From the NCBI GenBank assembly GCA_036387195.1, contig DASVUF010000006.1:294-64293 (forward strand): a stretch of DNA of 64,000 nucleotides, given 5' to 3'. The notes beneath the pieces are model-generated. The model saw only the letters and a list, made by a program, of their open reading frames with translations. It did not search any database and had not been told where the DNA came from. Made by a program: the position numbers and the translations under genes. Shown piece by piece: positions 27,838-63,368 of the stretch (positions within the stretch are counted from its first letter, which is position 1; every line of letters begins with the position of its first letter). This DNA comes from Pyrinomonadaceae bacterium. GTDB lineage: Bacteria; Acidobacteriota; Blastocatellia; Pyrinomonadales; Pyrinomonadaceae.

Positions 27838-29691
27838 ATGTCAACCCGGAACGGCGCCCGCGTCGCCTCTCACGCCGCTTCGAGACTCGAACGGCTGCCG
27901 AAGAAATCAGGGCTTAACATAGTCGGAATTTCGACCGGCTATCATGATTCATCGTGCTGCCTGCTGCGGGACGGCCAGATGGTCGCCGCCGCGCAGGAGG
28001 AACGCTTCACGCGTGTGAAGAATGACAAGTCGCTCCCGAAGTGGGCGTTCCGTTATTGCCTTGAGGAGGCCGGGCTCACGATCTCTGACGTTGATTGCGT
28101 CGCCTACTACGAAGACCCGTGCCGCAAACTCGGCCGGCAGATATGGATGGGGATGATGCCCGGCCTGCCGGCGGAGAGGCGCGAGACGATATACGACCGG
28201 CTGGCGAGGACGCAGCCCCAGGAGCAGATACGCAAGCGGCTGGGCTACGAGGGGCGCATTGAAATCTCCGACCACCACCTCTCGCACGCCGCCAGCAGTT
28301 ACTACTTCTCGGGGTTCGGGGATGCGGCCGTCCTGACCGTAGATGGAGTCGGCGATTGGCCCACGACGAGCTACAACGTGGGCCGGGGGGCGCGCCTGGA
28401 GCGTTTCGAGCAGGTCGATTTCCCCGATTCGTTGGGCCTGTTCTACAGCGCCGTGACCAGCTACCTCGGCTTCGAGGTCAACGAAGGCGAGTACAAGGTG
28501 ATGGGGCTCGCGCCCTACGGCCAACCGCTCTACGCCAGGCAGCTCGGGAAGCTGGTGCAGGTGACCTCGGAAGGCCAATACCGCCTCGACATGAAGTATT
28601 TCGCCTTCCTCACGAAAGATTTGATGTACACGGAACACCTCTGTTCCCTGCTCGGGCAGCCGCCGCGAGAGCCGGAGTCAGAGATTACGCAGTTCCACAG
28701 CGACGTGGCGAAAAGCGCGCAGGTCGTGTTGGAGGAGATTCTTCTGGAAAAAACCCGCTACCTCCACAGCAAAGTCCCGAGTGAGAACCTCTGCATGGCG
28801 GGCGGCGTGGCTTTGAATGTGGTGGCCAACAGTCGGTGTTTGAGGGAGGGGCCGTTCAAGCGTCTGTTCGTGCAACCCGCCGCAGGCGACGCCGGCGGGG
28901 CCGTGGGGGCGGCCGCCATCGCGCACGTACGACTCACGGGGGAGGCGCCGACCGGCAAACAACAGGACCACGTCTACCTGGGCCCGGCTTTATCTTCCGC
29001 GGAAGTCCTTCAAATCTTGAAAAGCACCTCGGCCAAGTATCAGGATTTCCGCGGACGGGAAGAGGAGCTGATAGGCTTCACGGTTGACCGACTGGCCGAA
29101 GGGAAAGTAATCGGGTGGGCGCAGGGGCGCATGGAATTCGGCCCCCGGGCGCTCGGCTCTAGGTCTATCCTGGCCGACCCGCGCCGCCATGACATGAGAG
29201 ACAGGATTAACGCGCTGGTCAAGATGCGCGAGGCTTTCCGCCCCTTCGCCCCCGCCGTTCTGGAATCTGAGGCCGCCGGGCATTTCGCCCTGGATCACCC
29301 TTCGCCGTTCATGCTCGAAACCTGCCAGGTGACTTCGCCCGTCGAGCTGCCGGCCATAACGCATGTTGACGGCTCAGCGCGGGTGCAGACGGTGAGCGCC
29401 GAAACGAACCCACGGTTCGCCGCGCTGCTTGAGGAGTTCAAGCGGCGCACCGGGTGTCCCATTCTACTCAACACCTCCTTCAACATGCGCGGCGAGCCCA
29501 TCGTGTGCAACGCGGTCGACGCGCTGATATGTTTCGTCAGGTCCAACATTGACTTCCTCGTCATCGAGGACTTCATTATTGGGCGCGCAGGCATTCCGAT
29601 CTTGTGGGAGATTCTGGCCACACAGGGGGGCCAGAAACATAAGCTCGGCGAGGGCGAGGAGGTAGGCCACCTCGTCTACACTCTGCTGTAG
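27838..29691 (+). CDS. NodU/CmcH/TobZ-family carbamoyltransferase
   Basis: 'NIVGISTGYHDSSCCLLRDGQMVAAAQEERFTRVKNDKSLP', 'LTVDGVGDW', 'CMAGGVALN', 'FVQPAAGDAGGAVGAA', 'GRMEFGPRALGSRSILADPR', 'LLNTSFNMRGEPIV'. Confidence 0.9.
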   Translation: MSTRNGARVASHAASRLERLPKKSGLNIVGISTGYHDSSCCLLRDGQMVAAAQEERFTRVKNDKSLPKWAFRYCLEEAGLTISDVDCVAYYEDPCRKLGRQIWMGMMPGLPAERRETIYDRLARTQPQEQIRKRLGYEGRIEISDHHLSHAASSYYFSGFGDAAVLTVDGVGDWPTTSYNVGRGARLERFEQVDFPDSLGLFYSAVTSYLGFEVNEGEYKVMGLAPYGQPLYARQLGKLVQVTSEGQYRLDMKYFAFLTKDLMYTEHLCSLLGQPPREPESEITQFHSDVAKSAQVVLEEILLEKTRYLHSKVPSENLCMAGGVALNVVANSRCLREGPFKRLFVQPAAGDAGGAVGAAAIAHVRLTGEAPTGKQQDHVYLGPALSSAEVLQILKSTSAKYQDFRGREEELIGFTVDRLAEGKVIGWAQGRMEFGPRALGSRSILADPRRHDMRDRINALVKMREAFRPFAPAVLESEAAGHFALDHPSPFMLETCQVTSPVELPAITHVDGSARVQTVSAETNPRFAALLEEFKRRTGCPILLNTSFNMRGEPIVCNAVDALICFVRSNIDFLVIEDFIIGRAGIPILWEILATQGGQKHKLGEGEEVGHLVYTLL

Positions 29692-29713
29692 GGGCAGTAA
29701 GGAGACACGCCGC

Positions 29714-31894
29714 ATGGAACGCCCGCCAGAATTGCTCAAAGATGTCGCCGACCGGCTGGCCCGCGCCGTCGTCACGGAGGACGGCGCGCAAGTGACCCGC
29801 CTCCTGCGGCTCGCCGGGCTACTCGGGGACCCTTCGAGTCCCGCTCCCGAGCGGTCGCTGACTGACAATATCGGCGGCCGCGAAGGGGCGGGCGAGGCGC
29901 CCGCCGAATCGCCCTCCCCACCCCGAATCGGAATCTGGGAAGGAGAGCAGGTGAACGGCCGGACCTGTTTCGTCCGCCGCCAGGACATGATGGGAGAGTG
30001 GAGCTTCTGGGCGAACGTCGGGCGGATAGAGCCGAAAGGGGACAGACTCCGCATCCTCCTCCTCGGCGAGTCTGTCGCCCGCGGCTATCTTTACGACCCG
30101 TTGTTCAACATGGCCGGCGCGCTGGAGGAGGTCCTCCAATCCCAGCTCGGTGAGGATAACGTCGAGGTCATTGACCTGGCCCGTACGAACCTCGGCCTTG
30201 ACCTGACGGAACTCGCCAGGTCCGCCCTGCTTCTTGAGCCGGACGCGGCCATCATCTTTGCCGGAAACAACTGGAGCGTCCGTTACTACGGCCCGCACCC
30301 ATACGAGCGGGCGGCGCTGGATGCGCAGATACGCAGGCAGGGCGTGCCCGGGTTAAAGCGCGGCTTCGAAGAGCGTCTGGCGGAGCAAGCCAGGAGCGGG
30401 GTCAAAGAGATAGCCTCTCTTTATCAAGCCGAGGGGACGCCGCTGGTCTGGATGGTCCCGGAATTCAACCTCGGCGACTGGCGCGACCCGGTGGCCATCG
30501 CGCCTCACCTGTCGCGGGGAGGCAACCGGGAGTGGCTCGCCCTTTGGGACGGCGCTCGCGACGCCCTGCGCGATGGCGACTTCGAGACGGCCGCGGACCT
30601 GGCGAAGCAGATGGTTCAGCTTGACGGCGGGACCACGGCCACGGGTTTGTACATCCTGGCCGAGTGCAGTCAACAACTGGGCGACCCGGTCGCGGGCAGG
30701 CGCTACCTCGAACTGGCCCGGGACGCGACGATCTGGGACTGCTCCCGCGCCATCTCGCCGAGGCCGTACACCGTGACGCAGGAAGTTCTGCGCGAGGAGG
30801 CGGTAAGGAGCCGGAATGAGGTCGTGGATGTGCCTGAGGTTTTCAAAGAATACCTGGACGGGGGCATCCCTGACCGCCGCCTGTTCCTGGACTACTGCCA
30901 CCTAACGTCCGAGGGGATTCGAGTCGCCGCGGCGGCCGCCGCCTCTCGCGTGCTGCGCTTGCTTGAGGGGGTGGACATCCACTGGCGCGAGCTAGTGGAC
31001 AGGAGTGTAGCGCCGCCCCCTGAGGTGGAGGCGGAGGCGTCTTTCCTGGCCGCCGTACACAACGCGCACTGGGCGCAGCCCTTCGACGTGGTCCGCCACT
31101 ACTGTCTGAGGGCTGTCGAGTTGTCGCCGTCCGTCGCGCAAATCATGGTCCGTTTCCTTGACCTCCAGACCCGGAGTGCTCCGCTGATGATGTGCCGGTC
31201 GGCGGAAGAGATCGCCATGTGGGGGTCGGAGCTGATGCAGCACTACCTTCTTCACCATAACCGCCAGCAGTTAGACAAGACCCTCCTTGACGCCGTGGTC
31301 GGGGCACTGGAGGGGGCGGGCATCAACGCCGGCGGCCAACTCGCTCAGCTCCGCCGGGAAGAACACAGCGTGGCGTCGCGCGACGTCAACCTGCTGGATT
31401 ACTACTACGTGTCGTCCGCGCGCCAGGCGCAGGAAGAGACATGGCTGATACCTCAACTGCAAAAGTTGAATGAGGCGAAGAATTACTACACCGCCTATTT
31501 GCGCGAATCCAGGTTTTTCTTTGTCGGCGATGCGAACCGCCCCGTGCGGCTGCGCCTCACCTGCCGTCTGCCTGAGTCGGAGAGTGACGAGGGGGCCATC
31601 TCAATTGAGGTGAACGGCGGCCGCGTCGGGGACGCGGTCATCGGCCGCCAATGGAGCGCCTGGGAGATCGAAGTGGCCGGCGGCGAGGTGCGCGACGGCC
31701 TGAACGAAGTAGTCATCCGCTGGCCGACGCCGGCATTCCCCGGTGACAAGCTGTTCGAGTCCCTGATTGAACGCGTAACCGACAAATCCCTGCCGGAGTT
31801 CTTCTGCCCGTTCGGTGAAATATATGCCTTCTCGGCGTCGGACGCGGGCGACGGCTCTGACGTGATGAAGCAGCCGTCCCCGGCCGGACATTGA
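29714..31894 (+). CDS. SGNH/GDSL-fold hydrolase-like protein with a large C-terminal extension of unknown function
   Basis: Block I 'RILLLGESVARG', block III 'IIFAGNNW', block V 'LDYCHLTSEG' (D-x-x-H). The last ~300 aa have no motif I recognise. Confidence 0.5.
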   Translation: MERPPELLKDVADRLARAVVTEDGAQVTRLLRLAGLLGDPSSPAPERSLTDNIGGREGAGEAPAESPSPPRIGIWEGEQVNGRTCFVRRQDMMGEWSFWANVGRIEPKGDRLRILLLGESVARGYLYDPLFNMAGALEEVLQSQLGEDNVEVIDLARTNLGLDLTELARSALLLEPDAAIIFAGNNWSVRYYGPHPYERAALDAQIRRQGVPGLKRGFEERLAEQARSGVKEIASLYQAEGTPLVWMVPEFNLGDWRDPVAIAPHLSRGGNREWLALWDGARDALRDGDFETAADLAKQMVQLDGGTTATGLYILAECSQQLGDPVAGRRYLELARDATIWDCSRAISPRPYTVTQEVLREEAVRSRNEVVDVPEVFKEYLDGGIPDRRLFLDYCHLTSEGIRVAAAAAASRVLRLLEGVDIHWRELVDRSVAPPPEVEAEASFLAAVHNAHWAQPFDVVRHYCLRAVELSPSVAQIMVRFLDLQTRSAPLMMCRSAEEIAMWGSELMQHYLLHHNRQQLDKTLLDAVVGALEGAGINAGGQLAQLRREEHSVASRDVNLLDYYYVSSARQAQEETWLIPQLQKLNEAKNYYTAYLRESRFFFVGDANRPVRLRLTCRLPESESDEGAISIEVNGGRVGDAVIGRQWSAWEIEVAGGEVRDGLNEVVIRWPTPAFPGDKLFESLIERVTDKSLPEFFCPFGEIYAFSASDAGDGSDVMKQPSPAGH

Positions 31895-32031
31895 GGCGCG
31901 CACGAAAGTCCTGACGTTGTGAGGCCGGCGCCTCCGGTTCGAACGTCCGAAGGGGCTTGCCGCGCCCGCACGTTACGCTCGTCGTGGGGCGAGGCGGGGG
32001 GCAAGTCTCATTCCGGCTCGCGGCGCGATGA

Positions 32032-53837: not shown

Positions 53838-54668
53838 ATGGGATACATCACGACACGCGACGACACGAAGCTCTACGTAAAAGACTGGGGACGGGGGCGT
53901 CCCGTCATCCTCATGCACGGCTGGCCGCTCTCCGCGGATAGCTGGGATGACCAGGCGTTGGCGATTGCCGAAGCGGGTTTTCGCGCGGTCGCTTACGACC
54001 GACGCGGCTTCGGCCGGTCGGAACAACCGTGGGAGGGGTATAACTACGACACGCTGGCCGACGACTTGTCCGCCGTCATCGAGGAGACCGGCGCGACCGA
54101 CGCGGCCGTCGTCGGCTTCTCGATGGGGGGCGGCGAGGTCGCGCGCTACATGTCGCGCCACGGGGGGAAGAACGTCGCCCAGGCCGTGCTGGTTTCTTCG
54201 GTCGTGCCGTACATGCTCCAGACCGCGGACAACCCCGAAGGCGTCCCTCAGGCGACGTTCAATCAGATGACCGAAGGAATGAAAGAAGACCGCGCGCATT
54301 TCTTCGAGGGCTTTTTCAAGGATTTCTATGGCGTCGGGCTGGTGTCGCAGCCGGTGAGCGACGAGGTGCTGGCGTGGTCGCGGAACGTGGCGATGCAGGC
54401 GAGCCTCAAGGCGACGCTCGACTGCGCCGGGGCTTTCGCGATGACGGATTTCCGGCCCGACCTCGCAGCCTTCACGGCGCCGACTTTAATCATCCACGGG
54501 ACCGGCGATAAGACGGTGCCGATTGACGCGACCGGGCGCGCGGCGGCGCGCGGCATACCTCAGGCCGAGCTGATCGAGTACGACGGCGCGCCGCACGGAC
54601 TGTTCGCGACGCACAAGAATCGCTTGACGCATGACCTGCTCGCGTTTCTGACCCGGTCAACGCATTGA
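53838..54668 (+). CDS. Alpha/beta hydrolase, non-haem chloroperoxidase / arylesterase type
   Basis: 'TTRDDTKLYVKDWGRGRPVILMHGWPLSADSWD', 'AYDRRGFGRSEQP', nucleophile elbow 'GFSMGGGEV', 'IIHGTGDKTVP', 'GAPHGLF'. Confidence 0.9.
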   Translation: MGYITTRDDTKLYVKDWGRGRPVILMHGWPLSADSWDDQALAIAEAGFRAVAYDRRGFGRSEQPWEGYNYDTLADDLSAVIEETGATDAAVVGFSMGGGEVARYMSRHGGKNVAQAVLVSSVVPYMLQTADNPEGVPQATFNQMTEGMKEDRAHFFEGFFKDFYGVGLVSQPVSDEVLAWSRNVAMQASLKATLDCAGAFAMTDFRPDLAAFTAPTLIIHGTGDKTVPIDATGRAAARGIPQAELIEYDGAPHGLFATHKNRLTHDLLAFLTRSTH

Positions 54669-54689
54669 CTCGGCGCCTTACAACGGCCG

Positions 54690-55270
54690 AGCGGCCGCGT
54701 GGAAGGAGCGGAGGCATTGGGCGGCCCGCCATCTCCTCCGTATTGCCCTGTGGTCTTGCCGATAACATGGTCGAGATGCCCGACGCGCCCGAGTTTACAA
54801 TCTCGCGGCAAGACTTTTTCTTTAACTGAAGCAGCGAACGCCTCCGGGTATGAGGCGCGCCCGTCCGCGCCGACGGTGAACGGTAGCCGCCGGTGGTCGG
54901 CCCTCATTAGCTTCTTAAAGAAACGTTTCGCCGCGCAAACATCCCGCTTCGCGCCGAGCATGAATTCGATGGCGTCCCCGACGGAGCCGACTGCTCTGTA
55001 AAGATATTCCCACTCTTTACCGACCTCCACGCACATCTCGTCCAGCCTGGAAGAGGCGCCACTCATCTTTAAATGAGGGGGCGCCCGCTCGTTGATTTCC
55101 GGGGCGCATTTCTGGGCCCATCTCCACACAGTCGCATGCCCCGGGGAGAGAACCGCGCCCGCGCATCATCTCCCCCATGTCGCTGTAAGAGAAGCCGGTA
55201 GCGGCGGCGCCGCCTGACGCATAAAAGGATGGTGGCAGGCTCGAAGTGGCGCCACTTAAAGGGGATTTAT
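54690..55270 (-). pseudogene. IS6-family (IS26-like) DDE transposase pseudogene with frameshifts, a stop codon and loss of the C-terminus
   Basis: Reading the minus strand across three frames gives 'INP(+1 nt)FKWRHFEPATILLCVRRRRRY', 'GFSYSDMGEMMRGRG', then '(stop)..SPGHATVWRWAQKCAPEINER...SSRLDEMCVEVGKEWEYLYRAVGSVGDAIEFMLGAKRDVCAAKRFFKKLM...FTVGADGRASYPEAF...RVGHLDHVIG'. This tracks IS26 Tnp 'MNPFKGRHFQRDIILWAVRWYCKY-GISYRELQEMLAERG-VDHSTIYRWVQRYAP...WHMDETYVKVNGRWAYLYRAVD...INTDKAPAY' (recalled from memory). The start ATG is now ATA (55268-55270). The third catalytic acidic residue is lost ('IEQDH' -> 'VIGK'). The 3' end near 54690 is approximate. Confidence 0.8.
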
Positions 55271-55355
55271 GCTGCTTTACGAGTATTATTCCCGGATAGG
55301 GATGACCGGGCTGCGGGGAGGATTATAGCCCGGGAGTGATTGCTGCAACACGGCC
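54690..55355 (-). mobile_element. Decayed IS6-family insertion sequence retaining one terminal inverted repeat
   Basis: The transposase remnant is described above. 85 nt outside its start, 55341-55355 'tgctgcaacacggcc' has the reverse complement GGCCGTGTTGCAGCA, which matches GGCACTGTTGCAAA (the IS26 IR as I recall it) at 10 of 14 positions. No convincing second IR was found. Confidence 0.65.
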
Positions 55356-55389
55356 GTTCCGGCGCCGACAAACCGCCTACGGGACGCGG

Positions 55390-55468
55390 GCCGAGGGGCG
55401 CGCCCGGCGAGCCGCCCCGCCTACGTCGAAGGGCGCGAGCCGTCGCGGGGCGGCTCGCGCCCCTCGGC
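55390..55468. repeat. Long imperfect inverted repeat (13 + 11 bp arms with a 7-nt bulge) in a non-coding spacer
   Basis: The reverse complement of 55390-55420 'gccgaggggcgcgcccggcgagccgccccgc' is 'gcggggcggctcg|ccgggcg|cgcccctcggc'. 55445-55468 reads 'gcggggcggctcgcgcccctcggc'. Confidence 0.6.
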
Positions 55469-55770
55469 TCCGACCAGTTCGTGCTCGCACAGACGCGCGG
55501 CGCAAGCTACTATACGCGGGCGCGCGCCCCGGCCGGAGCGTCTCGGAAGGTTCAGCCGCCCCGCTCTACGACCCGATGCGCGCCGGCTCGCCGGCGCGCG
55601 GGGGAGCTGAAGCCCTCGCGCGTCAACTGGAGCCGCCGGGGCGGCCCTGATACGCTTTGCCGCCACGTCGGGCGGGTGGAAACGTTTTCGCCGAATTCCT
55701 CATTCATTTATTAAGGATGAATCCGAGAGGGTGACCGCGCCCGCTCTCTTACTCACCGTGGTTGAAAATT

Positions 55771-55791
55771 CAGGCCCCGGCGGGGGGCCTG
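55771..55791 (-). terminator. Intrinsic-terminator-like hairpin oriented for the minus strand
   Basis: An 8-bp GC stem, 'caggcccc' (55771-55778) paired with 'ggggcctg' (55784-55791), with a 5-nt loop. On the minus strand it is followed by 'AAUUUUCAA'. There is no U-tract on the plus strand. Confidence 0.4.
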
Positions 55792-55978
55792 ATATCGGTC
55801 GAAGGCGCTTCTCGCCTGATAACGTATGGCAGGCGCCCGGCGCAGGATGACCGAGGCGGACATCCCGGCGACGCCCTGGCGTGTGGTGGCCTCCGTCGCC
55901 CTGCTCGACTCCGCTACTCTACAGCCCGGCGTATACAAGCGGCGCGGGAGTCGCCCGCTTCGCCGAAGGAGATAAGTG

Positions 55979-58900
55979 ATGCCTAAAGATTTATCTTCCA
56001 GCGTTGAATTCCTGCGCCCGCCCGTCGGCCCGTCCTCGCGCGACGGCATCACCGGCGAGGTCGCGGAAAGCCTGGCCTTCGACGACCCGCGGCGGGTGAG
56101 CGCGCTAATACGCGCGTCGGACATGCGCCGCGCCGGCTCGCTGTCGGACAAAGGGTTCAGCGCCGCCGTCGCCGCCGAGTCGCTGACCTCGCTTGAGATC
56201 ATCATCGGCGAAAACAACATCCTGCCGGCCTGGTTTCTGGACGTGGCGCCGACCCGCTCGTCCGCGGTCTGTAAGATCGAAGCGGGCGGGACGAACTACA
56301 AAGGGGGCAGGGGGCGATGGGTCGGCACGGGCTTTCTTATCTCGGACAGCGTCCTCCTCACGAACCACCACGTCATCAACTCCCCGGACACGGCGCGCAA
56401 CGCCGAGTGCGTTTTTAACTACCAGCGCGACCCCGAGGGGAAAGACCTGCCCGTGAAGCGCTTCCGCCTGAACCCCGGCCGGCTGTTCCTGACGAGCCCG
56501 ACGCCGGGCGGCCTGGACTTCACCTTCGTCTGGGTGGAGGGCGCGCCCGGCAAGGAGTTCGGCATCGTGCCCTTCAACCGGGACTTCTTCGTCATTCAGG
56601 AGGGGGACGTCGCGAACATCATCCAGCACCCCGGGGGCGACTACAAGGGCGTGACCTTGCAGGAGAACAAGGTCATGCGGGTGGACGAGGCCCTTGTGCA
56701 TTACGTCTCCGACACGAAGCCGGGCAGCTCCGGGAGCTGCGTCTTCAACAACAGTTGGATGCCGTTCGCCCTGCACCACGCCAGCGCCGACAACGCCAGC
56801 CCGGGCGCGGCGAACCCCTCCAGGTACGTCAACGAAGGCATCAGGTTCTCGGCCATCGTCGCCTACCTGGAGAACCTCATGCGGGATGAGCCCGCGCGCA
56901 GGCAGGCCGTCGAAGAGATTCTCTCGCACGTCAACGGGACCGACTCGGTCCTGGGTCACTGGGGCGCCCTGGGACGCGCCGCCCCCGACTCGCGCCCCGC
57001 CGTCGAAACCGTGGTGAACATCTACAGAGGCGAGGCCGAGGACGTTGACGTGGGCTTCTGGAACGTCGGGTGGTTCACCCCGCGTTACAGCGAGAAGCTC
57101 CAGCGCGTGGCCGAGGTGTTCGTCAAGATGAACCTCGACATCTGGGTCTTCGAGGAGACGACGGCCGAGGCGGCGGGCGCGCTCGCCGCCTACCTGCGGG
57201 ACGCCTACCACCTCGACTTCGTGTGCGAATTCTCCGAGCCGGACCCGCAGCCCGGCGCGCAGACGACCGCGGTGATGTGGAATCGGAAGACGGTCGAGGG
57301 GCGGAAGGCCGAATGGCCGGCCGAGATAGACGAGTGGTTCAGCGCGCGCGCAGAGGACTTCGACGACCTCCGCCGGGAGGGGGCCGAGGGCCGTATGTTC
57401 GAACGCCGCCCCGCGCTCTTCCGCTTCTCGAACAAGGGCGGCGCCGCGTTCGACTTCTTCCTGGCGCCGCTCCACCTCAAGGCGCAGGACGGAGGAGGGA
57501 AGCGGCGCGTGGCGGCGGCCATCCTCGCCGCGGCCGTCGGCAGGATGGTCGAGCAGCAGGGGGCCGACCGCGACTGGGTTATCGGCGGCGACTTTGACGC
57601 GCCGCTGGCGAACGAGGACTTCGGCAAGCTGGTCGCCGGCGGCATGACGGCGCTGAGCGCCGGGGGCGGGCAGGGCGGCGCGTTCTCCTACGTCAAGGGG
57701 CCGAACTCGCCCGTCGAACACGTCTTCCTCTCGCCGAACCTGTCCGAGACTTACGGGGGCGAAGACTTCTTCATCGTGGCCCGGGACAAAGAGATTCCCG
57801 ACTACCTGACGGCGCTCGGCGGCCACAGCCCGGTGCTGGTCAGACTCAGCATCCGGGGCGACCAGCCTAAAAACGAAAGGGGACATATGACGGACGGGAA
57901 AAGACTGTCTGACTCGCTGCGCGACAAGTTATCCGGCCTCGACCTGGGGGTCGGCGTCGGCTCGGCGCGCCCCGCGCCGGACGCGGACGGTGACGGTGAC
58001 GGTGACGGTGACTCCGCCGCGCTGCGCATCCCGCTGACCGTGACCGTGAGCGGCGACGAGGTGAGCCTCTCGGCGCGCATCAGCGTGCGGGAGTTGAAGG
58101 GGCTGCTGGCGGGCGCTTCGCCCGGCGTGGTCGAGGAGGCCGTGAGCATAGACCCCGACTACGGCAGCCGGCAGGGGTACGACCCGGACTTCCTCGGCGC
58201 GGGCAAGCGGCGCGTCCCGCTGCCGCAGTTGTCGGCCGCCTTGAAGGCCAGGGCCGCGGTCAACAGCAAGGCCGCCGGCGGCGACAGGCACGTGCTGCCT
58301 TACCACCACTACAGCGTGGTGATGAACAGGGAGCGGCGGCTGGCCTTCTTCACCGCCGTCAACATTGACGGGAGCGTCTTCTACAACATCAAGCGCGAGC
58401 CGGACAAGTGGTACTTCGACCCGCGCATCGGGAAGGACGAGCAGACCGGCAACGAGGTCTACGCCAACAACCCGCTCGACCGCGGCCACCTCGTGCGCCG
58501 CCTCGACCCGGCCTGGGGCGAGTCGCGCGAGCTGGCGAAGGTGGCCAACGACGACACCTTCCACTTCACCAACTGCTCGCCGCAGCATCACGACTTCAAC
58601 GCCGGCAAGTCGCTCTGGGCCGGCCTCGAAGACTACATCCTGAAGAACGCCGACGCGCTGGACTTTAAAGTCTCGGTCTTCACCGGCCCGGTCTTCAGCA
58701 AAGACGACGACGCATACCGCGGCGTGCAATTGCCGCGGCAGTTCTGGAAGGTCGTCGTCATGGTCAAGGGCGACGGGAAACTGTCCGCGACCGGCTACCT
58801 CCTGAGCCAGGAGACGCTGCTCCAGGGCATCGGCGAGGAGGCGTTCGTGCCCGAGGACAAGGAGGCCTTCTCCTACGGGGCTTACAAGACGTTCCAGACG

Positions 58901-59053
58901 CCCGTGCGGAGGATCGAGAAGCTGACCGGGCTGAGCTTCGGCCAGCTACGTAATTTCGACCCGAAGAACCACCTGGAAAGCGACCTGGAGGGGCTCGAAG
59001 CCCTCGACCTCCGACAGGCGACGCTGGACGATTACAAGGACATCAAGTTCTGA
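55979..59053 (+). CDS. Three-enzyme fusion: trypsin-fold serine protease - EEP (DNase I-like endo/exonuclease/phosphatase) - DNA/RNA non-specific endonuclease (beta-beta-alpha-Me, Endonuclease_NS)
   Basis: Protease (~56189-56875): 'GTGFLISDSVLLTNHHVI', 'LDFTFVWV', 'NIIQHPGG', 'GSSGSCVF'. EEP (~57038-57856): 'DVGFWNVGWF', 'LDIWVFEET', 'FLAPLHLKA', 'VIGGDFDAPL', 'GGHSPVLVRL'. EndoNS (~58283-58945): 'YHHYSVVMNRERRLAFFTAVNIDG', 'DRGHLVRR' (58478-58501), 'FTNCSPQHHDFNAGKSLWAGLEDYI'. AAGGAG lies at 55966-55971, 7 nt before ATG 55979; the ORF track starts at GTG 55976. Confidence 0.85.
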   Translation: MPKDLSSSVEFLRPPVGPSSRDGITGEVAESLAFDDPRRVSALIRASDMRRAGSLSDKGFSAAVAAESLTSLEIIIGENNILPAWFLDVAPTRSSAVCKIEAGGTNYKGGRGRWVGTGFLISDSVLLTNHHVINSPDTARNAECVFNYQRDPEGKDLPVKRFRLNPGRLFLTSPTPGGLDFTFVWVEGAPGKEFGIVPFNRDFFVIQEGDVANIIQHPGGDYKGVTLQENKVMRVDEALVHYVSDTKPGSSGSCVFNNSWMPFALHHASADNASPGAANPSRYVNEGIRFSAIVAYLENLMRDEPARRQAVEEILSHVNGTDSVLGHWGALGRAAPDSRPAVETVVNIYRGEAEDVDVGFWNVGWFTPRYSEKLQRVAEVFVKMNLDIWVFEETTAEAAGALAAYLRDAYHLDFVCEFSEPDPQPGAQTTAVMWNRKTVEGRKAEWPAEIDEWFSARAEDFDDLRREGAEGRMFERRPALFRFSNKGGAAFDFFLAPLHLKAQDGGGKRRVAAAILAAAVGRMVEQQGADRDWVIGGDFDAPLANEDFGKLVAGGMTALSAGGGQGGAFSYVKGPNSPVEHVFLSPNLSETYGGEDFFIVARDKEIPDYLTALGGHSPVLVRLSIRGDQPKNERGHMTDGKRLSDSLRDKLSGLDLGVGVGSARPAPDADGDGDGDGDSAALRIPLTVTVSGDEVSLSARISVRELKGLLAGASPGVVEEAVSIDPDYGSRQGYDPDFLGAGKRRVPLPQLSAALKARAAVNSKAAGGDRHVLPYHHYSVVMNRERRLAFFTAVNIDGSVFYNIKREPDKWYFDPRIGKDEQTGNEVYANNPLDRGHLVRRLDPAWGESRELAKVANDDTFHFTNCSPQHHDFNAGKSLWAGLEDYILKNADALDFKVSVFTGPVFSKDDDAYRGVQLPRQFWKVVVMVKGDGKLSATGYLLSQETLLQGIGEEAFVPEDKEAFSYGAYKTFQTPVRRIEKLTGLSFGQLRNFDPKNHLESDLEGLEALDLRQATLDDYKDIKF
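57980..58012 (+). repeat. In-frame GGT-GAC microsatellite encoding an Asp-Gly repeat linker (DADGDGDGDGD)
   Basis: 'gacgcggacggtgacggtgacggtgacggtgac' between the EEP and EndoNS domains. Confidence 0.9.
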
Positions 59054-59063
59054 CGCGCGGGCG

Positions 59064-59087
59064 GCCTGCGGCGGCGCCGCCGCAGGC
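59064..59087 (+). terminator. Perfect 24-nt GC palindrome directly after the fusion gene's stop (hairpin, no U-tract)
   Basis: 'gcctgcggcggc|gccgccgcaggc'. A second hairpin lies at 59131-59163 ('gccgcacggcc' ... 'ggccgtgcggc', 11-nt loop). Confidence 0.3.
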
Positions 59088-59197
59088 TAAAGCCTCCGGA
59101 GGCGCGCGTCCCTGTCCGGCGCCGGTGGACGCCGCACGGCCGCCGCTACGCGGGCCGTGCGGCCGACGGCCGAGCCGGGTGAAAGGAGTTGACATCT

Positions 59198-59713
59198 ATG
59201 GCTGGCGAGGGTTTTGAGGCGGGCTGGACCGGCTCCAAGGCAAAAGCCGTGCTCTCCTTCGCGCAAGGGGTCGTGCCGCTGGTCATCGCCGTGGCGGTTC
59301 TGCTCATCTTCTGGGGTCTGGTCAAATCTATGATGGGTTTGACGAAGGCTCCGGAGTTAGAATGGAATCGCGCCGCGTACCTGTTCTCGGGGGTGGAGGC
59401 GATAGCCTACGCCGCCGCCGGTTTCCTTTTCGGGAGGGAGGTGCACCGCCAGCGCGCCGAGCAGGCCGAGCAGCGCGCCGGCAGCGAGCAGCAGCGCGCC
59501 TCCGAAGCCGAAAAGAAGGCCACCGAAGAGACGACCAAGGGCCAGACCCTCAGGCGGGTCATCGAGGCCAAGAAGTCCACACGGCTCGAACGCGCGCCCG
59601 ACATGGAGGGGCTTGAGAGTTTTCAGGCCGGCGGCGGCCCGGCGCAGGCGGCGGGGCAGTCGGACATTGACGAGCTGTCGAGAGTCTCCAGCGAGCTGTT
59701 CCCTTACAACTGA
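59198..59713 (+). CDS. Small two-TM membrane protein with a charged coiled-coil C-terminal tail (unknown family)
   Basis: TM1 'VLSFAQGVVPLVIAVAVLLIFWGLV', TM2 'AAYLFSGVEAIAYAAAGFLFG', then 'REVHRQRAEQAEQRAGSEQQRASEAEKKATEE'. AAGGAG lies at 59183-59188, 9 nt before ATG 59198; the ORF-track TTG 59189 has no spacing to it. Confidence 0.7.
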   Translation: MAGEGFEAGWTGSKAKAVLSFAQGVVPLVIAVAVLLIFWGLVKSMMGLTKAPELEWNRAAYLFSGVEAIAYAAAGFLFGREVHRQRAEQAEQRAGSEQQRASEAEKKATEETTKGQTLRRVIEAKKSTRLERAPDMEGLESFQAGGGPAQAAGQSDIDELSRVSSELFPYN

Positions 59714-59880
59714 CGCGGGGACCGCACAGCGCGCGCCGGCCGAAATTCATAACGACCTTAAGACTCTTTGAAGGGGTAGTGTGATGGCGCCGGCCGGGTC
59801 GCGCCGGCGTAAGGTGTATGAACTGCCCGACGCGGTGGCCGCCGAAGAGCCCCGCGCCTTCGTGTAGAGGGGCTGCGAAT

Positions 59881-60861
59881 ATGGCGTCGAGAGAAACCCT
59901 GACGGCTTTAAATTATGTCCTCGCCGGCCTGTACCCCTTCCCCGCCGATTCCTACAGAATCGTTGAAGAGGCCGGCATACCGCCGCAGGTCGTCGCTTTC
60001 AGGCCCAAGGCCATAGACACCTGGTACGAAATCCTCCGCGCCGCCAACAACATGGGGCGCGTGCTCGACGTGGTGCGGGCGGCGCTCAACGAACACCCCG
60101 AGAACCCCTTGCTCATACAGGCCGGGAAGGGCGAAATAAAGCAGACGCCGGCCCCCGTCGTGGGCACAGACCTGCCCTGGAAGGGCGACCTCTCCGCGGA
60201 CGCCCTGGAGAGGATCATGGGGAGTCAGAGCACGCTCCTGCCCGTCAGCTTTCTTGAGGTCGGCGTGCTGCAATCCCGGACCGTGGCCAAGGTTCAGTTC
60301 GCCGGCGGCGAGAGCGGGTCGGGCTTTCTTCTGAAAGACAACCTCTTCGTCACCAACCACCACGTCATCCCCGACCGCGAGCGAGCCGCGGTCGCGGAAC
60401 TCCTGTTCAACTACCAGAAGTCGGCGGCCGGCCTCGACCTCCAGCCGAGCAGCCGCAGGCTCGACCCCGAAAGCGGCTTCGCCACCTCCGACGAGCACGA
60501 CTGGACGCTCGTCCGCGTGGACGGCGACGCCAACGCCGAGTGGGGCGCCATCGAAATCAGGGAGGTTGACGTGAGTGTGGCCGAGAGGGTGAACATCATC
60601 CAGCACCCGGGCGGCGGGCCGAAACAGATAGCCCTCTATCACAACGTCGTCGCCTACGTCGGCGAAAACCGCATCCAGTACCTGACCGACACCCTGCCGG
60701 GCTCTTCCGGCTCGCCCGTCTTCGACAGCAAGTGGCAGGTCGTCGCCCTCCACCGCAGCGGCGGCTGGATACTCGAACCGGGGACGAAGAACCACGTCTT
60801 CCGGAACGAGGGGATTAACATCAACCGCGTGGTGCAGGGCCTGAGAGCAGCCGGGTTGTGA
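59881..60861 (+). CDS. Adaptor (effector-associated/death-like helical domain) fused to a trypsin-fold serine protease
   Basis: The N-terminal ~80 aa are helical and alignable without gaps to the N-terminus of the next gene. Protease 'GSGFLLKDNLFVTNHHVI', 'HDWTLVRV', 'NIIQHPGG', 'LPGSSGSPVF', 'VVALHRSGG'. I chose ATG 59881; the ORF track's upstream 21 codons (from 59818) are Pro/Arg-rich. Confidence 0.8.
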   Translation: MASRETLTALNYVLAGLYPFPADSYRIVEEAGIPPQVVAFRPKAIDTWYEILRAANNMGRVLDVVRAALNEHPENPLLIQAGKGEIKQTPAPVVGTDLPWKGDLSADALERIMGSQSTLLPVSFLEVGVLQSRTVAKVQFAGGESGSGFLLKDNLFVTNHHVIPDRERAAVAELLFNYQKSAAGLDLQPSSRRLDPESGFATSDEHDWTLVRVDGDANAEWGAIEIREVDVSVAERVNIIQHPGGGPKQIALYHNVVAYVGENRIQYLTDTLPGSSGSPVFDSKWQVVALHRSGGWILEPGTKNHVFRNEGININRVVQGLRAAGL

Positions 60862-60866
60862 GCGGT

Positions 60867-63368
60867 ATGGGCTGGACGCCGGAGCTAACCAGAATCAGGG
60901 ACATCCTCGCCAGACTCTACCCTCACAAGGAAGAGCTGCCCAGGCTCGTCGAGGACGCCGGCATGGCGCTGGAGTTGGTCGAACTCGACGGCACGGCGAG
61001 CGCCGCCTGGCACGACATCATAAAAAAGGCGGTCGCGGGCGGCCGGCTCGACGCCCTGGTCGGCGAGTGCGTCAAGTCCGCCGCCGACGCCGAGCTGCGG
61101 GGGGCCTATCAGGACTACCTCGCCGCCGCGCGCCGCCCCGGAGCCGCGCCCGCCGCCGCCCTCCACGCCCCGCCGCCCCTCCAGCCCCCCACGCTCATCG
61201 GCCGCGACGCCGAGGTGCAGACCTTAAAGGAACTCCTGCGCGAGCCCGAGACGCGCCTGCTGACGCTGACCGGGCCCAGCGGCGTGGGCAAGACGGCGCT
61301 GGCCAAGCGCCTGGCGGTAGACCTCGCCAAAGAGTTCGCGGACGGCGTGACCTTCGTCGAGCTGGGCGCGCTCCGCAACCACGAGGCCGCGCCGGGCGAG
61401 GTCGCCGGCGTGATGTGGGACTACAAGCAGACCGTAGACATCCCCCTAATAAGTTTCCTGCAGGACAAGCGGCGGCTGATAGTCCTTGACGGCTTCGAGG
61501 CCGTCATCAAGGCCACGCCGTTCGTTAAGACCCTGCTCGGGAATTGCCCCGGCGTAAAAATCATCATCACCAGCCAGCAGCCCCTCGCCTGTGAGGACGA
61601 AGAACTCTCCCTGCTGGAGAAAAGATACATCGTCACGCCGCTCTCGTACCCCGGCGCGGGCGGCCAGTCGCCCGAGGTCACGGCGGCCGAGTCGGCGGCC
61701 GTCAAGCTCTTCGTCGCCCACGCGGAGGCGATAAAAGGCAAAGGCAAACTCGACCTCGGCCCCGCGAACATGGAGGCCATCGTGGCCATCTGCAGCGAGG
61801 TCAACGGGCTCCCGCTCTGCATACAGATACTGGCCAGCTTCATCAGCATCTTTAACGACCCGCCGGCCTTGCTGGAGTTTCTGAGGCGGGAGGGCTTCGC
61901 GCAGCTCGACGAGGAGCAGCACCTCTCGAAGGCCATAGACATCAGGCACGCCAGCCTCAAGCCGGACGACCAAATCCTCTTCAGGCGGCTGGCGGTGTTC
62001 GCCGACTGGTGTTCGTTGCAGGCCATCAGGGAAGTGTGCGCGTCGGCCGGCGGAAAGACCGTCCCGGTCGTGACCACCCTGAGACGGCTGGTTGACGGGA
62101 GCTTTGTGCAGTCGGAAGGCGGGCGGTACAGGATGCTTCAGGTCATCCGCGAGAGCGCGCGCGAGCACCTGAAGTCGAGCGGCGAGGCCGACGACCTCCG
62201 GATGAGATTCGTGGAGCACTACCTGGCAGTCGCCAGGGAGGCGGAGCCGAAACTTAAGACGCCTGAACGCGCCGCGCAGCTACAGGAACTCCAGCGGGAC
62301 TACGGAAACTTCCGGGCCGTGTTCGACTGGAGCGCCACCCCGAAGGGGAGCCCGGAGGCGGGGCTGTCGCTGGCCGGCTCGCTCTTCTGGTACTGGAACT
62401 TCATGGGCTACCTCCGCGAGGGGCAGCGGCGCGTGCAGAAGGCCGTGCGCCTGGCCGCCCCGCAAGCGCCCTCTGCGCCGCTGGCGAAGGCGCTGTACTG
62501 TGACGGCGGCCTGACGTTCCTCCTCGGCGACTACAGGGAGGCGCAGAGGCAGCTCGACAAGAGCGCCGAGGCGTGGAACGCCGTCGGCGACGAGGCCGGC
62601 CTCGCCTACGCGCTGATAGTGCTCGGCATGGTCAGGAAGGAGATAGGCGAAGACCTCGACTCGGCGCGCGAGCACGAGGAGAAGAGCGTACGACTGCTGG
62701 CGGGGCGCGACGAGTGGGGGCACGCGCTCGCGCTCAACGACCTCGGGAACGTGCTGGCGGCGCAGGGGCTTCACGGCGAGGCGCGGCGAAGTTACGAAGA
62801 GAGCAAAGCGATGTGGGGGCGGCTGAAGGACACCTGGGGACTGTCGCTGACCCTGAGCAACCTCAGTTCGCTGGAGTGCAAGGAGCAGAACTACGGCGTG
62901 GCCTACGACCTGATGCGGGACGCGCTCAAACTCCAGCTCGAGGCGGGCGATAAGTGGGGCCGGGCCTGGTCGCTCAAGGGAATCGGCGAGGCGAAACTGG
63001 GCATGAAGGACTACGCGGCCGCGGCCTCGCACTTCTACGAGAGTTACCGCCTGCACTCCGACCTGGGCCGAAAGCAGTTGATAGCGGAGTGCTTGGAGGG
63101 ACTGGCGAAGGTCGCCGCGGGGCTCGGTCAGGAGTCGCGGGCCGCGTCCCTGCACGGGGCGGCGGAAAGCCTCCGCGAGCAGTCGGGGAGCAGCATGTCC
63201 TCCGCAAAGGATAGGGAGTATGATGGCCTCGTGAATCGCCTGCGCCTCGACATGGGCATGAAGGCTTTCGAGAGGGCCCGGGCCGAAGGGCGCGCGTGGA
63301 CTGAGGAGCGGTTGCAGCAGCAGGTTCAGTCCTACGCCCTCGACCTTCAAGGCGGCGCAGGCCCCTGA
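60867..63368 (+). CDS. STAND NTPase: adaptor domain - NB-ARC-type P-loop NTPase - TPR/helical-repeat sensor
   Basis: 'LIGRDAEVQTLKELL', Walker A 'LTGPSGVGKTALAKRLA' (61272-61295), Walker B 'RLIVLDGFE' (61476-61499), 'IIITSQQPL', 'GLPLCIQILASFI'. The C-terminal ~370 aa are TPR-like repeats ('WYWNFMGYLREGQ', 'GDEAGLAYALIVLGMV', 'WGHALALNDLGNVL', 'TWGLSLTLSNLSSL', 'WGRAWSLKGIGEA'). With ATG 60867, 'LYP' falls at residues 17-19, exactly as in the preceding gene. GTG 60858 (GTGA overlap with that gene's stop) is the alternative. Confidence 0.85.
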   Translation: MGWTPELTRIRDILARLYPHKEELPRLVEDAGMALELVELDGTASAAWHDIIKKAVAGGRLDALVGECVKSAADAELRGAYQDYLAAARRPGAAPAAALHAPPPLQPPTLIGRDAEVQTLKELLREPETRLLTLTGPSGVGKTALAKRLAVDLAKEFADGVTFVELGALRNHEAAPGEVAGVMWDYKQTVDIPLISFLQDKRRLIVLDGFEAVIKATPFVKTLLGNCPGVKIIITSQQPLACEDEELSLLEKRYIVTPLSYPGAGGQSPEVTAAESAAVKLFVAHAEAIKGKGKLDLGPANMEAIVAICSEVNGLPLCIQILASFISIFNDPPALLEFLRREGFAQLDEEQHLSKAIDIRHASLKPDDQILFRRLAVFADWCSLQAIREVCASAGGKTVPVVTTLRRLVDGSFVQSEGGRYRMLQVIRESAREHLKSSGEADDLRMRFVEHYLAVAREAEPKLKTPERAAQLQELQRDYGNFRAVFDWSATPKGSPEAGLSLAGSLFWYWNFMGYLREGQRRVQKAVRLAAPQAPSAPLAKALYCDGGLTFLLGDYREAQRQLDKSAEAWNAVGDEAGLAYALIVLGMVRKEIGEDLDSAREHEEKSVRLLAGRDEWGHALALNDLGNVLAAQGLHGEARRSYEESKAMWGRLKDTWGLSLTLSNLSSLECKEQNYGVAYDLMRDALKLQLEAGDKWGRAWSLKGIGEAKLGMKDYAAAASHFYESYRLHSDLGRKQLIAECLEGLAKVAAGLGQESRAASLHGAAESLREQSGSSMSSAKDREYDGLVNRLRLDMGMKAFERARAEGRAWTEERLQQQVQSYALDLQGGAGP

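Follow-up and report, generated by a model that had tools for sequence, protein, structure and literature searches.

The window analyzed here, a 64,000-nucleotide stretch of DNA from a Pyrinomonadaceae bacterium (contig DASVUF010000006.1), carries a forward-strand gene (55979..59053, +) coding for a 1,024-amino-acid (aa) protein in which a serine protease, a DNase-I-like EEP domain, and a NucA/EndoG-type nuclease follow one another in a single polypeptide. With a probability that we put at about 0.55, this tripartite protein serves as protease-fused effector in an NLR-like conflict system of three genes (EAD1/STAND type; CARD-NLR-like, NucA-trypsin), organized as [protease-EEP-NucA][EAD1-trypsin][EAD1-STAND-TPR]. 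The identities of the domains, the states of their active sites, the conserved linkage of the genes, and the pairing of two EAD1 domains are established in this analysis.

The linkage is seen by comparing family members that do and do not carry NucA. Partner genes, defined as a second trypsin paralog, a STAND NTPase, or an EAD protein within 10 kb, are present at 8/9 distinct loci in which the protease+EEP core bears NucA, compared with about 3/42 protease+EEP loci without it (Fisher p = 2e-6). The association spans different phyla and adaptor types (EAD1 and EAD5). The neighbors are a STAND NTPase, an EAD5-trypsin, and two unknowns (one astacin-like) at L002, a STAND NTPase at L006, and an EAD1-trypsin and/or conserved EAD1-containing and partner proteins at L007, L011, L019, L023, and L030; L019 is cut off on its 5' side by a contig end, which leaves only the EEP and NucA domains visible. 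At L001, none of the trypsin, STAND, or EAD partners was detected. An ortholog with 72% identity (L076), retrieved after the census and left out of the 8/9 count, has the tripartite gene followed after 20 bp by EAD1-trypsin and after a further 3 bp by EAD1-STAND. The first-pass annotation of this DNA had pictured a latent, proteolytically controlled effector tied to the downstream trypsin paralog, and that picture fits the difference in linkage, the L076 operon, and the published work on protease-gated and CARD-NLR effectors.

In the window the trypsin partner is a 326-aa protein (59881..60861, +) with Pfam matches to an EAD1 adaptor and a Trypsin_2 protease; its TNHH/D/GSSGS triad motifs are present, and over the protease domain it shares 41% identity with the 1,024-aa protein. 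The next gene (60867..63368, +) codes for an EAD1 domain, a STAND/NACHT-type P-loop NTPase, and C-terminal TPR repeats, and is the presumed sensor. It matches AAA_16, NACHT, NB-ARC, and TPR_12, and its Walker A (GPSGVGKT) and Walker B (LIVLD) motifs are intact. The EAD1 domains of the two proteins are 35% identical, as expected of cognate adaptor pairs (Kaur et al. 2020, PMC7159879). An AlphaFold2 (AF2) model of EAD1 has five helices with a predicted local distance difference test score (pLDDT) of 83. Its top Foldseek match in the PDB is a Lysobacter death-like domain (8srz), which is non-significant (E = 3.7, probability 0.08, TM-score about 0.3), and comparison with an ankyrin death domain gives a TM-score of 0.42; a phmmer search matched neither 8SRZ nor 8SS1. 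None of these comparisons confirms a CARD-like death fold for EAD1. EAD1-trypsin homologs at three further loci (L071 8001-16842, L072 8001-16779, and L074 1568-7081) are accompanied by an EAD1 protein, a ~270-310-aa protein without a Pfam match, and an all-TPR protein that is either giant (1,891 aa) or 740 aa. No NTPase or nuclease is recognizable at these three loci, and L071 adjoins a phage-type integrase.

For the trigger, the order and sites of cleavage, the nuclease substrate, and the biological role (defense or programmed lysis), we infer the following scheme. The TPR arm of the STAND NTPase would recognize an invader- or stress-derived trigger, and NTP-dependent oligomerization would then cluster its EAD1 domains. 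Homotypic EAD1-EAD1 contacts would bring in the small EAD1-trypsin, which would be activated by proximity and would either cut the latent effector or switch on its V8-like protease in another way. The likely places for a cut would be a conserved GxDxxxGFFGxLGR linker or a disordered Asp/Gly-rich linker, both described below. The freed NucA domain would degrade nucleic acid, and the cell would be killed or arrested.

The effector open reading frame (ORF) runs from an ATG at 55979 to a TGA at 59051-59053, and the ATG is preceded by a GAAGGAGA Shine-Dalgarno sequence 8 nt upstream. Long spurious ORFs are frequent in ~70% GC DNA such as that of the window, and a 593-aa antisense ORF overlaps the gene; the effector frame is favored over the overlapping antisense ORFs because of its codon-position GC pattern (0.65/0.45/0.91 for positions 1/2/3), in which third-position GC (GC3) is 0.91. 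Three independent assemblies (JGI, ENA, and Logan) yield the identical 1,024-aa protein, and the ORF is a genuine gene. Pfam matches to Trypsin_2, Exo_endo_phos, and Endonuclease_NS confirm the three-module architecture that had been read from the sequence. The earlier statement that the protein lacks a signal peptide and a transmembrane segment is also borne out, by hydropathy only: no signal peptide, twin-arginine (Tat) motif, or transmembrane segment was found, and the maximum 19-residue Kyte-Doolittle score (KD19) is 1.28.

The N-terminal 70 residues (55979..56188, +) form a helical region that is specific to the family, with helices at aa 26-76 in the AF2 model (pLDDT >90) and no Pfam match for the N-terminal ~70 residues at E <= 10. 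They sit where the downstream paralog has its EAD1 domain. A cryptic EAD1 adaptor at aa 1-70 is rejected, since hhalign of the family N-terminus against the EAD1 alignment gives a probability of only 0.05 and there is no Pfam match. The ~70 N-terminal residues had been described as matching nothing recognizable, and this stands for aa 1-70 as far as Pfam is concerned, but aa 71-101 are not an orphan segment: they are the N-terminal extension of the protease clade and match the paralog segment between EAD1 and protease. Some tripartite proteins (L011, L030, and P0016 at L007 8001-12131) have an extra extension of ~400 aa before the conserved helices, which in P0016 corresponds to Pfam DUF8225.

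The protease module (aa 71-285; 56189..56833, +) is a V8/exfoliative-toxin-like serine protease (S1B, Trypsin_2) with the clade-specific N-terminal extension, and the Trypsin_2 match covers residues 116-260 (Pfam E = 1.6e-16). Its triad, numbered from the ATG, consists of H131 (56369-56371), D180 (56516-56518), and S251 (56729-56731), all on the forward strand; these residues align with the triad motifs of staphylococcal exfoliative toxins and glutamyl endopeptidases and are unchanged in 120/120 aligned homologs, and the triad is intact as judged by alignment. The best Foldseek matches of the AF2 protease model are V8, Esp, exfoliative toxins, FAM111A, and DegS, and the closest solved structures and sequences are those of staphylococcal V8, Esp, and ETA/ETB (MEROPS S1B) together with human FAM111A. 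V8 and Esp are zymogens that are activated by removal of an N-terminal propeptide. The staphylococcal proteases are secreted, single-domain enzymes, whereas the effector protease is extended N-terminally by 110 cytoplasmic residues and followed by C-terminal nuclease modules. Between the protease and EEP domains lies a linker motif, G-x-D-x3-G-[FY]-F-G-x-L-G-R (aa 320-333; 56936..56977, +), identified in the family alignment. Each of its residues is kept in at least 105/120 sequences, and it is modeled as coil with a pLDDT of about 90. The motif could be a gate, a cleavage site, or an autoprocessing site. It is kept even in trypsin-NucA relatives that have no EEP domain.

The EEP domain (aa 346-630; 57014..57868, +) retains its fold, and its active site is degenerate in the window copy. 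The Exo_endo_phos match spans residues 361-588 (E = 2.3e-6; 28 bits versus the Pfam cut-off of 24.5), a profile of the family EEP matches 9sf9, EEPD1, and DNase I in the PDB, and Foldseek matches the AF2 model (pLDDT about 90) to DNase I, EEPD1, and TDP2; the predicted four-layer alpha/beta EEP fold is thereby confirmed by profile and model. At the 12 signature positions the window EEP reads NGEHDDEHGGHS, whereas 15/15 other tripartite homologs read NEEHDNDHSDHR, residues that are also kept in >105/120 family members. The 6/12 changes are E364G, N540D, D580E, S614G, D615G, and R617S, and the complete signature N...E...H...GDxN...D(H)...SDH is absent. N540D replaces the Asn of GDxN, and S614G and D615G replace the Ser-Asp of the terminal SDH. 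In DNase I and APE1, the GDxN Asn and the SDH Ser-Asp bind the scissile phosphate and metal. Because phosphate- and metal-binding signature residues have changed, the window EEP domain is probably inactive or strongly impaired, and probably only a scaffold or substrate-binding module. The first-pass annotation had credited the protein with three intact-looking active sites, and in this it was mistaken, the EEP motifs that it cited being deviant forms (GGDFD, SPVEHVF, and HSPV, versus the family-invariant GGDFN, SLIDHIF, and SDHRPV). Its suggestion that two nucleases provide redundant destruction is likewise unlikely for the window protein because the EEP signature is degenerate.

A low-complexity linker rich in Asp and Gly (aa 631-745; 57869..58213, +), which includes a short beta hairpin, has an AF2 pLDDT of <50 and leads into the C-terminal beta-beta-alpha-Me nuclease of the NucA/EndoG type (58214..59050, +). 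The Endonuclease_NS match covers residues 765-988 (Pfam E = 1.7e-53). H837 of the DRGH motif (58487-58489), N865 (58571-58573), and E884 (58628-58630), all on the forward strand, correspond in the alignment with Anabaena NucA (1zm8; RGH, TN..PQ, and LEDY motifs) to its catalytic His, its Mg-binding Asn, and its conserved Glu, and the NucA site of the effector is intact as judged by alignment. These residues are kept in 15/16 tripartite proteins, the exception being the 905-aa P0015. The NucA portion of the AF2 model is of low confidence (pLDDT <50).

Systems of this general type have been described before. Kaur et al. (eLife 2020, PMC7159879) predicted, by computation only, a NucA-trypsin 'System 3' in which NucA is fused or adjacent to several trypsin paralogs, one of which is fused to EAD1, alongside other EAD1 proteins and in some cases a STAND NTPase; deployment of NucA via a proteolytic cascade was proposed. 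The window locus shares with it a trypsin-NucA fusion beside a second trypsin paralog (59881-60861), as well as an EAD1-trypsin accompanied by a further EAD1 protein/STAND NTPase, a combination also present in L076. It differs in the EEP domain of the effector, as neither EEP nor exonuclease is mentioned in that paper (zero occurrences), and in source, the window being from an Acidobacteriota-labeled metagenome-assembled genome whereas the published system is mostly alphaproteobacterial (45 organisms). The STAND proteins differ as well, with bDLD2 and a trypsin domain in the published system and EAD1 and TPR repeats in the window.

A second point of comparison is provided by systems in which a CARD-like adaptor-trypsin and an NLR-like ATPase have been shown by experiment to switch on effectors of the gasdermin or phospholipase/endonuclease kind (Wein et al. 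2023, PMC10312443); in related operons, gasdermin is replaced by endonuclease or phospholipase effectors, and the closest of these CARD-NLR forms to the window locus are the Azospirillum-type three-gene operons (PMC10312443). Like them, the window locus has a STAND/NLR-like ATPase with C-terminal repeats, but this NTPase itself bears the same adaptor at its N-terminus, and the effector has the additional EEP domain. Sensor control of a trypsin-like protease that turns a latent nuclease into an active DNase, with abortive infection as the outcome, is also the logic of the protease-gated metallo-beta-lactamase (MBL)-fold pro-nucleases in Hachiman and AVAST/Avs (Tuck et al. Science 2025, PMC12799240; Evans et al. 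2025, PMC12642450). In those trypsin-MBL modules the nuclease is separate, has the MBL fold, and depends on a protease fused to the sensor, whereas the window effector combines a NucA beta-beta-alpha-Me domain and EEP with its own protease, and the upstream protease of the proposed cascade is recruited via an adaptor domain.

The third comparison is with Caulobacter crescentus LypC, which consists of a trypsin-like peptidase (1-335) and an endonuclease (354-662) and acts with LypA and LypB; overexpression of LypABC is toxic, lysis requires the ATPase as well as both peptidases, and the system drives release of gene transfer agents (GTAs) (Banks et al. Nat Microbiol 2026, PMC13236601). The window effector resembles LypC in architecture, the level at which the two were compared, with a long N-terminal peptidase module preceding a His-Me endonuclease, and its partners resemble the adaptor-trypsin LypA and the TPR-containing, NLR-like ATPase LypB. 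It differs in having the ~290-aa EEP domain between protease and nuclease, and the 326-aa EAD1-trypsin lacks the extra C-terminal ATPase-like domain of LypA. GTA release and the dispensability of the LypC nuclease residues are further differences from the system proposed here.

The same comparison raises the alternative that the window locus is a LypABC-like programmed-lysis or developmental module, in which what matters is the protease output of the large protein on downstream targets, the nuclease domains having an accessory or structural part. LypC S296 is essential whereas H471 and N505 are dispensable, and deletion of the endonuclease domain merely destabilizes LypC (PMC13236601). The window EEP has already lost its catalytic signature, showing tolerance to lost nuclease chemistry, and the protease triad is the invariant element throughout the homologs. 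However, near-universal retention of the NucA catalytic residues in the tripartite proteins speaks against it, selection on nuclease function is suggested because the presence of NucA correlates with that of partner genes, and no GTA or prophage genes were seen adjoining the locus; we regard this alternative as quite improbable.

The first-pass annotation knew of no characterized protein resembling this tripartite one, which overstates its novelty, as trypsin-NucA fusions beside EAD1-trypsin and STAND genes were described by computation in 2020 and there is genetic work on LypC, a trypsin-endonuclease fusion. The inserted EEP domain alone lies outside the published descriptions of NucA-trypsin and LypC, and the locus is an already predicted, partly characterized type of system with an extra, here degenerate, EEP module.

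The wider family to which this module belongs is large and variable. A search of 5.8 billion proteins yielded about 15 other clusters that share the three-domain architecture, with 54-72% identity to the window protein, and an exhaustive HMMER search with the core against 1.84 billion 50%-identity clusters (cut-off E <= 1e-30) yielded 318 representatives, distributed over at least eight phyla. The conserved core (~650 aa) comprises the N-terminal helices, protease, linker, and EEP domain, and occurs alone or with extra modules, including NucA, Endonuclease_1, an N-terminal Lipase_3, GDSL lipase, Peptidase_S8, Amidase_2, and Amidase_3; the helices and the invariant linker motif are conserved whatever the context. 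A sister architecture without EEP (Trypsin_2+Endonuclease_NS, about 640-660 aa) is clearly homologous to the window protein. Among species-representative genomes the family is found in Planctomycetota, Acidobacteriota, Chloroflexota, Bacteroidota, Verrucomicrobiota, Myxococcus, many Alphaproteobacteria, and Massilia; Metabacillus and Tessaracoccus have the trypsin-NucA form. Megaplasmids of Bacillus, Paenibacillus, Rhizobium, and Mesorhizobium carry two-domain relatives, with no tripartite protein in the plasmid search, and a search of phage genomes returned no family homolog. Literature searches for Trypsin_2 combined with Exo_endo_phos found no bacterial description. Metallopeptidase genes (astacin/M12-like and Peptidase_M6) recur beside family members (L002 6718-7710, L029 1013-3112, L078 5114-6529, and L010 10030-11460) in unrelated bacteria, including on Bacillus thuringiensis megaplasmids, which hints at further proteolytic partners.

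Swappable modules of this kind are typical of secreted and interbacterial toxins, and the peptidoglycan amidases among them require access to the envelope, so the protease+EEP core might instead be a delivery and processing chassis with interchangeable lytic cargo, the window protein being an exported polymorphic toxin or a nutritional nuclease. Against this stand the lack of export signals noted above and the conserved linkage with cytoplasmic STAND and EAD components. No immunity-like or secretion-system genes and no extracellular contractile injection system (eCIS) genes were recognized adjoining the window locus, nor is there a phage context or a match in phage genomes, and this explanation appears highly unlikely.

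A more speculative extension, which we advance tentatively as one that may well not hold, is that the protease+EEP core has so far gone undescribed as a self-contained effector chassis gated by proteolysis, into which evolution inserts exchangeable modules for killing (NucA, Endonuclease_1, lipases, peptidoglycan amidases, and subtilisin), and of which only the NucA versions were captured by EAD/STAND sensors, giving a two-tier cascade like that of initiator and executioner caspases. Decay of the EEP domain in the window copy would then record a killing function handed from EEP to NucA.

The immediate surroundings of the effector gene include additional elements. A 144-bp spacer with two very stable GC-rich hairpins (59050-59200) follows the stop codon (minimum free energy of -90 kcal/mol, z = -2.1 versus shuffles, no U-tract), and may serve in processing or stability, or be REP-like. 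A promoter and terminator scan of 54.6-63.6 kb performed no better than shuffled sequence. Between the spacer and the EAD1-trypsin gene, a 171-aa protein (59198..59713, +) combines two transmembrane helices with a tail that is charged and coiled-coil-like, and matches nothing in Pfam or PADLOC. It is probably accessory because it is missing in L076; at L001 an unrelated 171-aa transmembrane protein occupies the same place. These same features (two transmembrane helices, no family match, absence from L076, and replacement in L001) leave the idea of a NuiA-like nuclease inhibitor or immunity protein unsupported. Directly upstream of the operon, at the edge of a lower-GC stretch, is a remnant of an IS6/IS240-family DDE transposase (54560..55129, -). 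Because of this remnant and the lower GC of 54669-63368 (0.667 versus 0.709 for the rest of the window), the region is suggested to be a horizontally acquired island. An NCBIfam search of the locus returned nothing.

Elsewhere in the window, a run of large co-directional ORFs (5-27806, +; 1,428/1,265/1,530/2,396/816/900 aa; GC3 >0.9) may be a biosynthetic megasynthase cluster. A second low-GC patch (28000-32000; 0.63-0.65) contains a carbamoyltransferase gene and codes for a 726-aa protein with a weak GDSL-lipase match.

Several observations weigh against the three-gene effector proposal. The tripartite protein has no EAD detectable by hhalign that would account for its recruitment, and the Caulobacter LypC bound neither LypA nor LypB in two-hybrid assays, its nuclease residues being dispensable for lysis (PMC13236601). 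PADLOC 2.0 called no known defense system at the window locus, giving only sub-threshold protease matches. The remaining points also favor a different explanation, namely that the gene is an autonomous, self-gated toxin or defense gene, for example one controlled by autoproteolysis by its own V8-like protease, and that the adjoining EAD1/STAND genes are a separate system in a shared variable island. Most protease+EEP relatives stand alone (about 39/42 loci without NucA lack any trypsin, STAND, or EAD partner), which suggests that the core may be self-sufficient, in keeping with its conservation regardless of context. EAD1-trypsin homologs (55-60% identity) occur in operons without a tripartite gene, and in the window the hairpin-bearing spacer and the intervening transmembrane-protein gene part the effector from its presumed partners. 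We nevertheless consider such autonomy unlikely, since partner linkage of the NucA versions extends over several phyla and both EAD1 and EAD5, and the L076 genes form a tight operon.

The less-charted part of this biology is the broader protease+EEP family with its swappable modules, whose members are natural domain-swap variants for dissecting the role of the conserved core; the decayed EEP of the window copy is similarly a natural control for which nuclease matters. If the proposed effector role is true, the locus would be a compact bacterial analog of an initiator/executioner protease cascade. The NucA/EndoG-type nuclease family is also used in eukaryotic apoptosis, and the rule of proteolysis-gated effectors, represented by MBL nucleases, gasdermins, Pepco, and EACC1, would extend to these nucleases.

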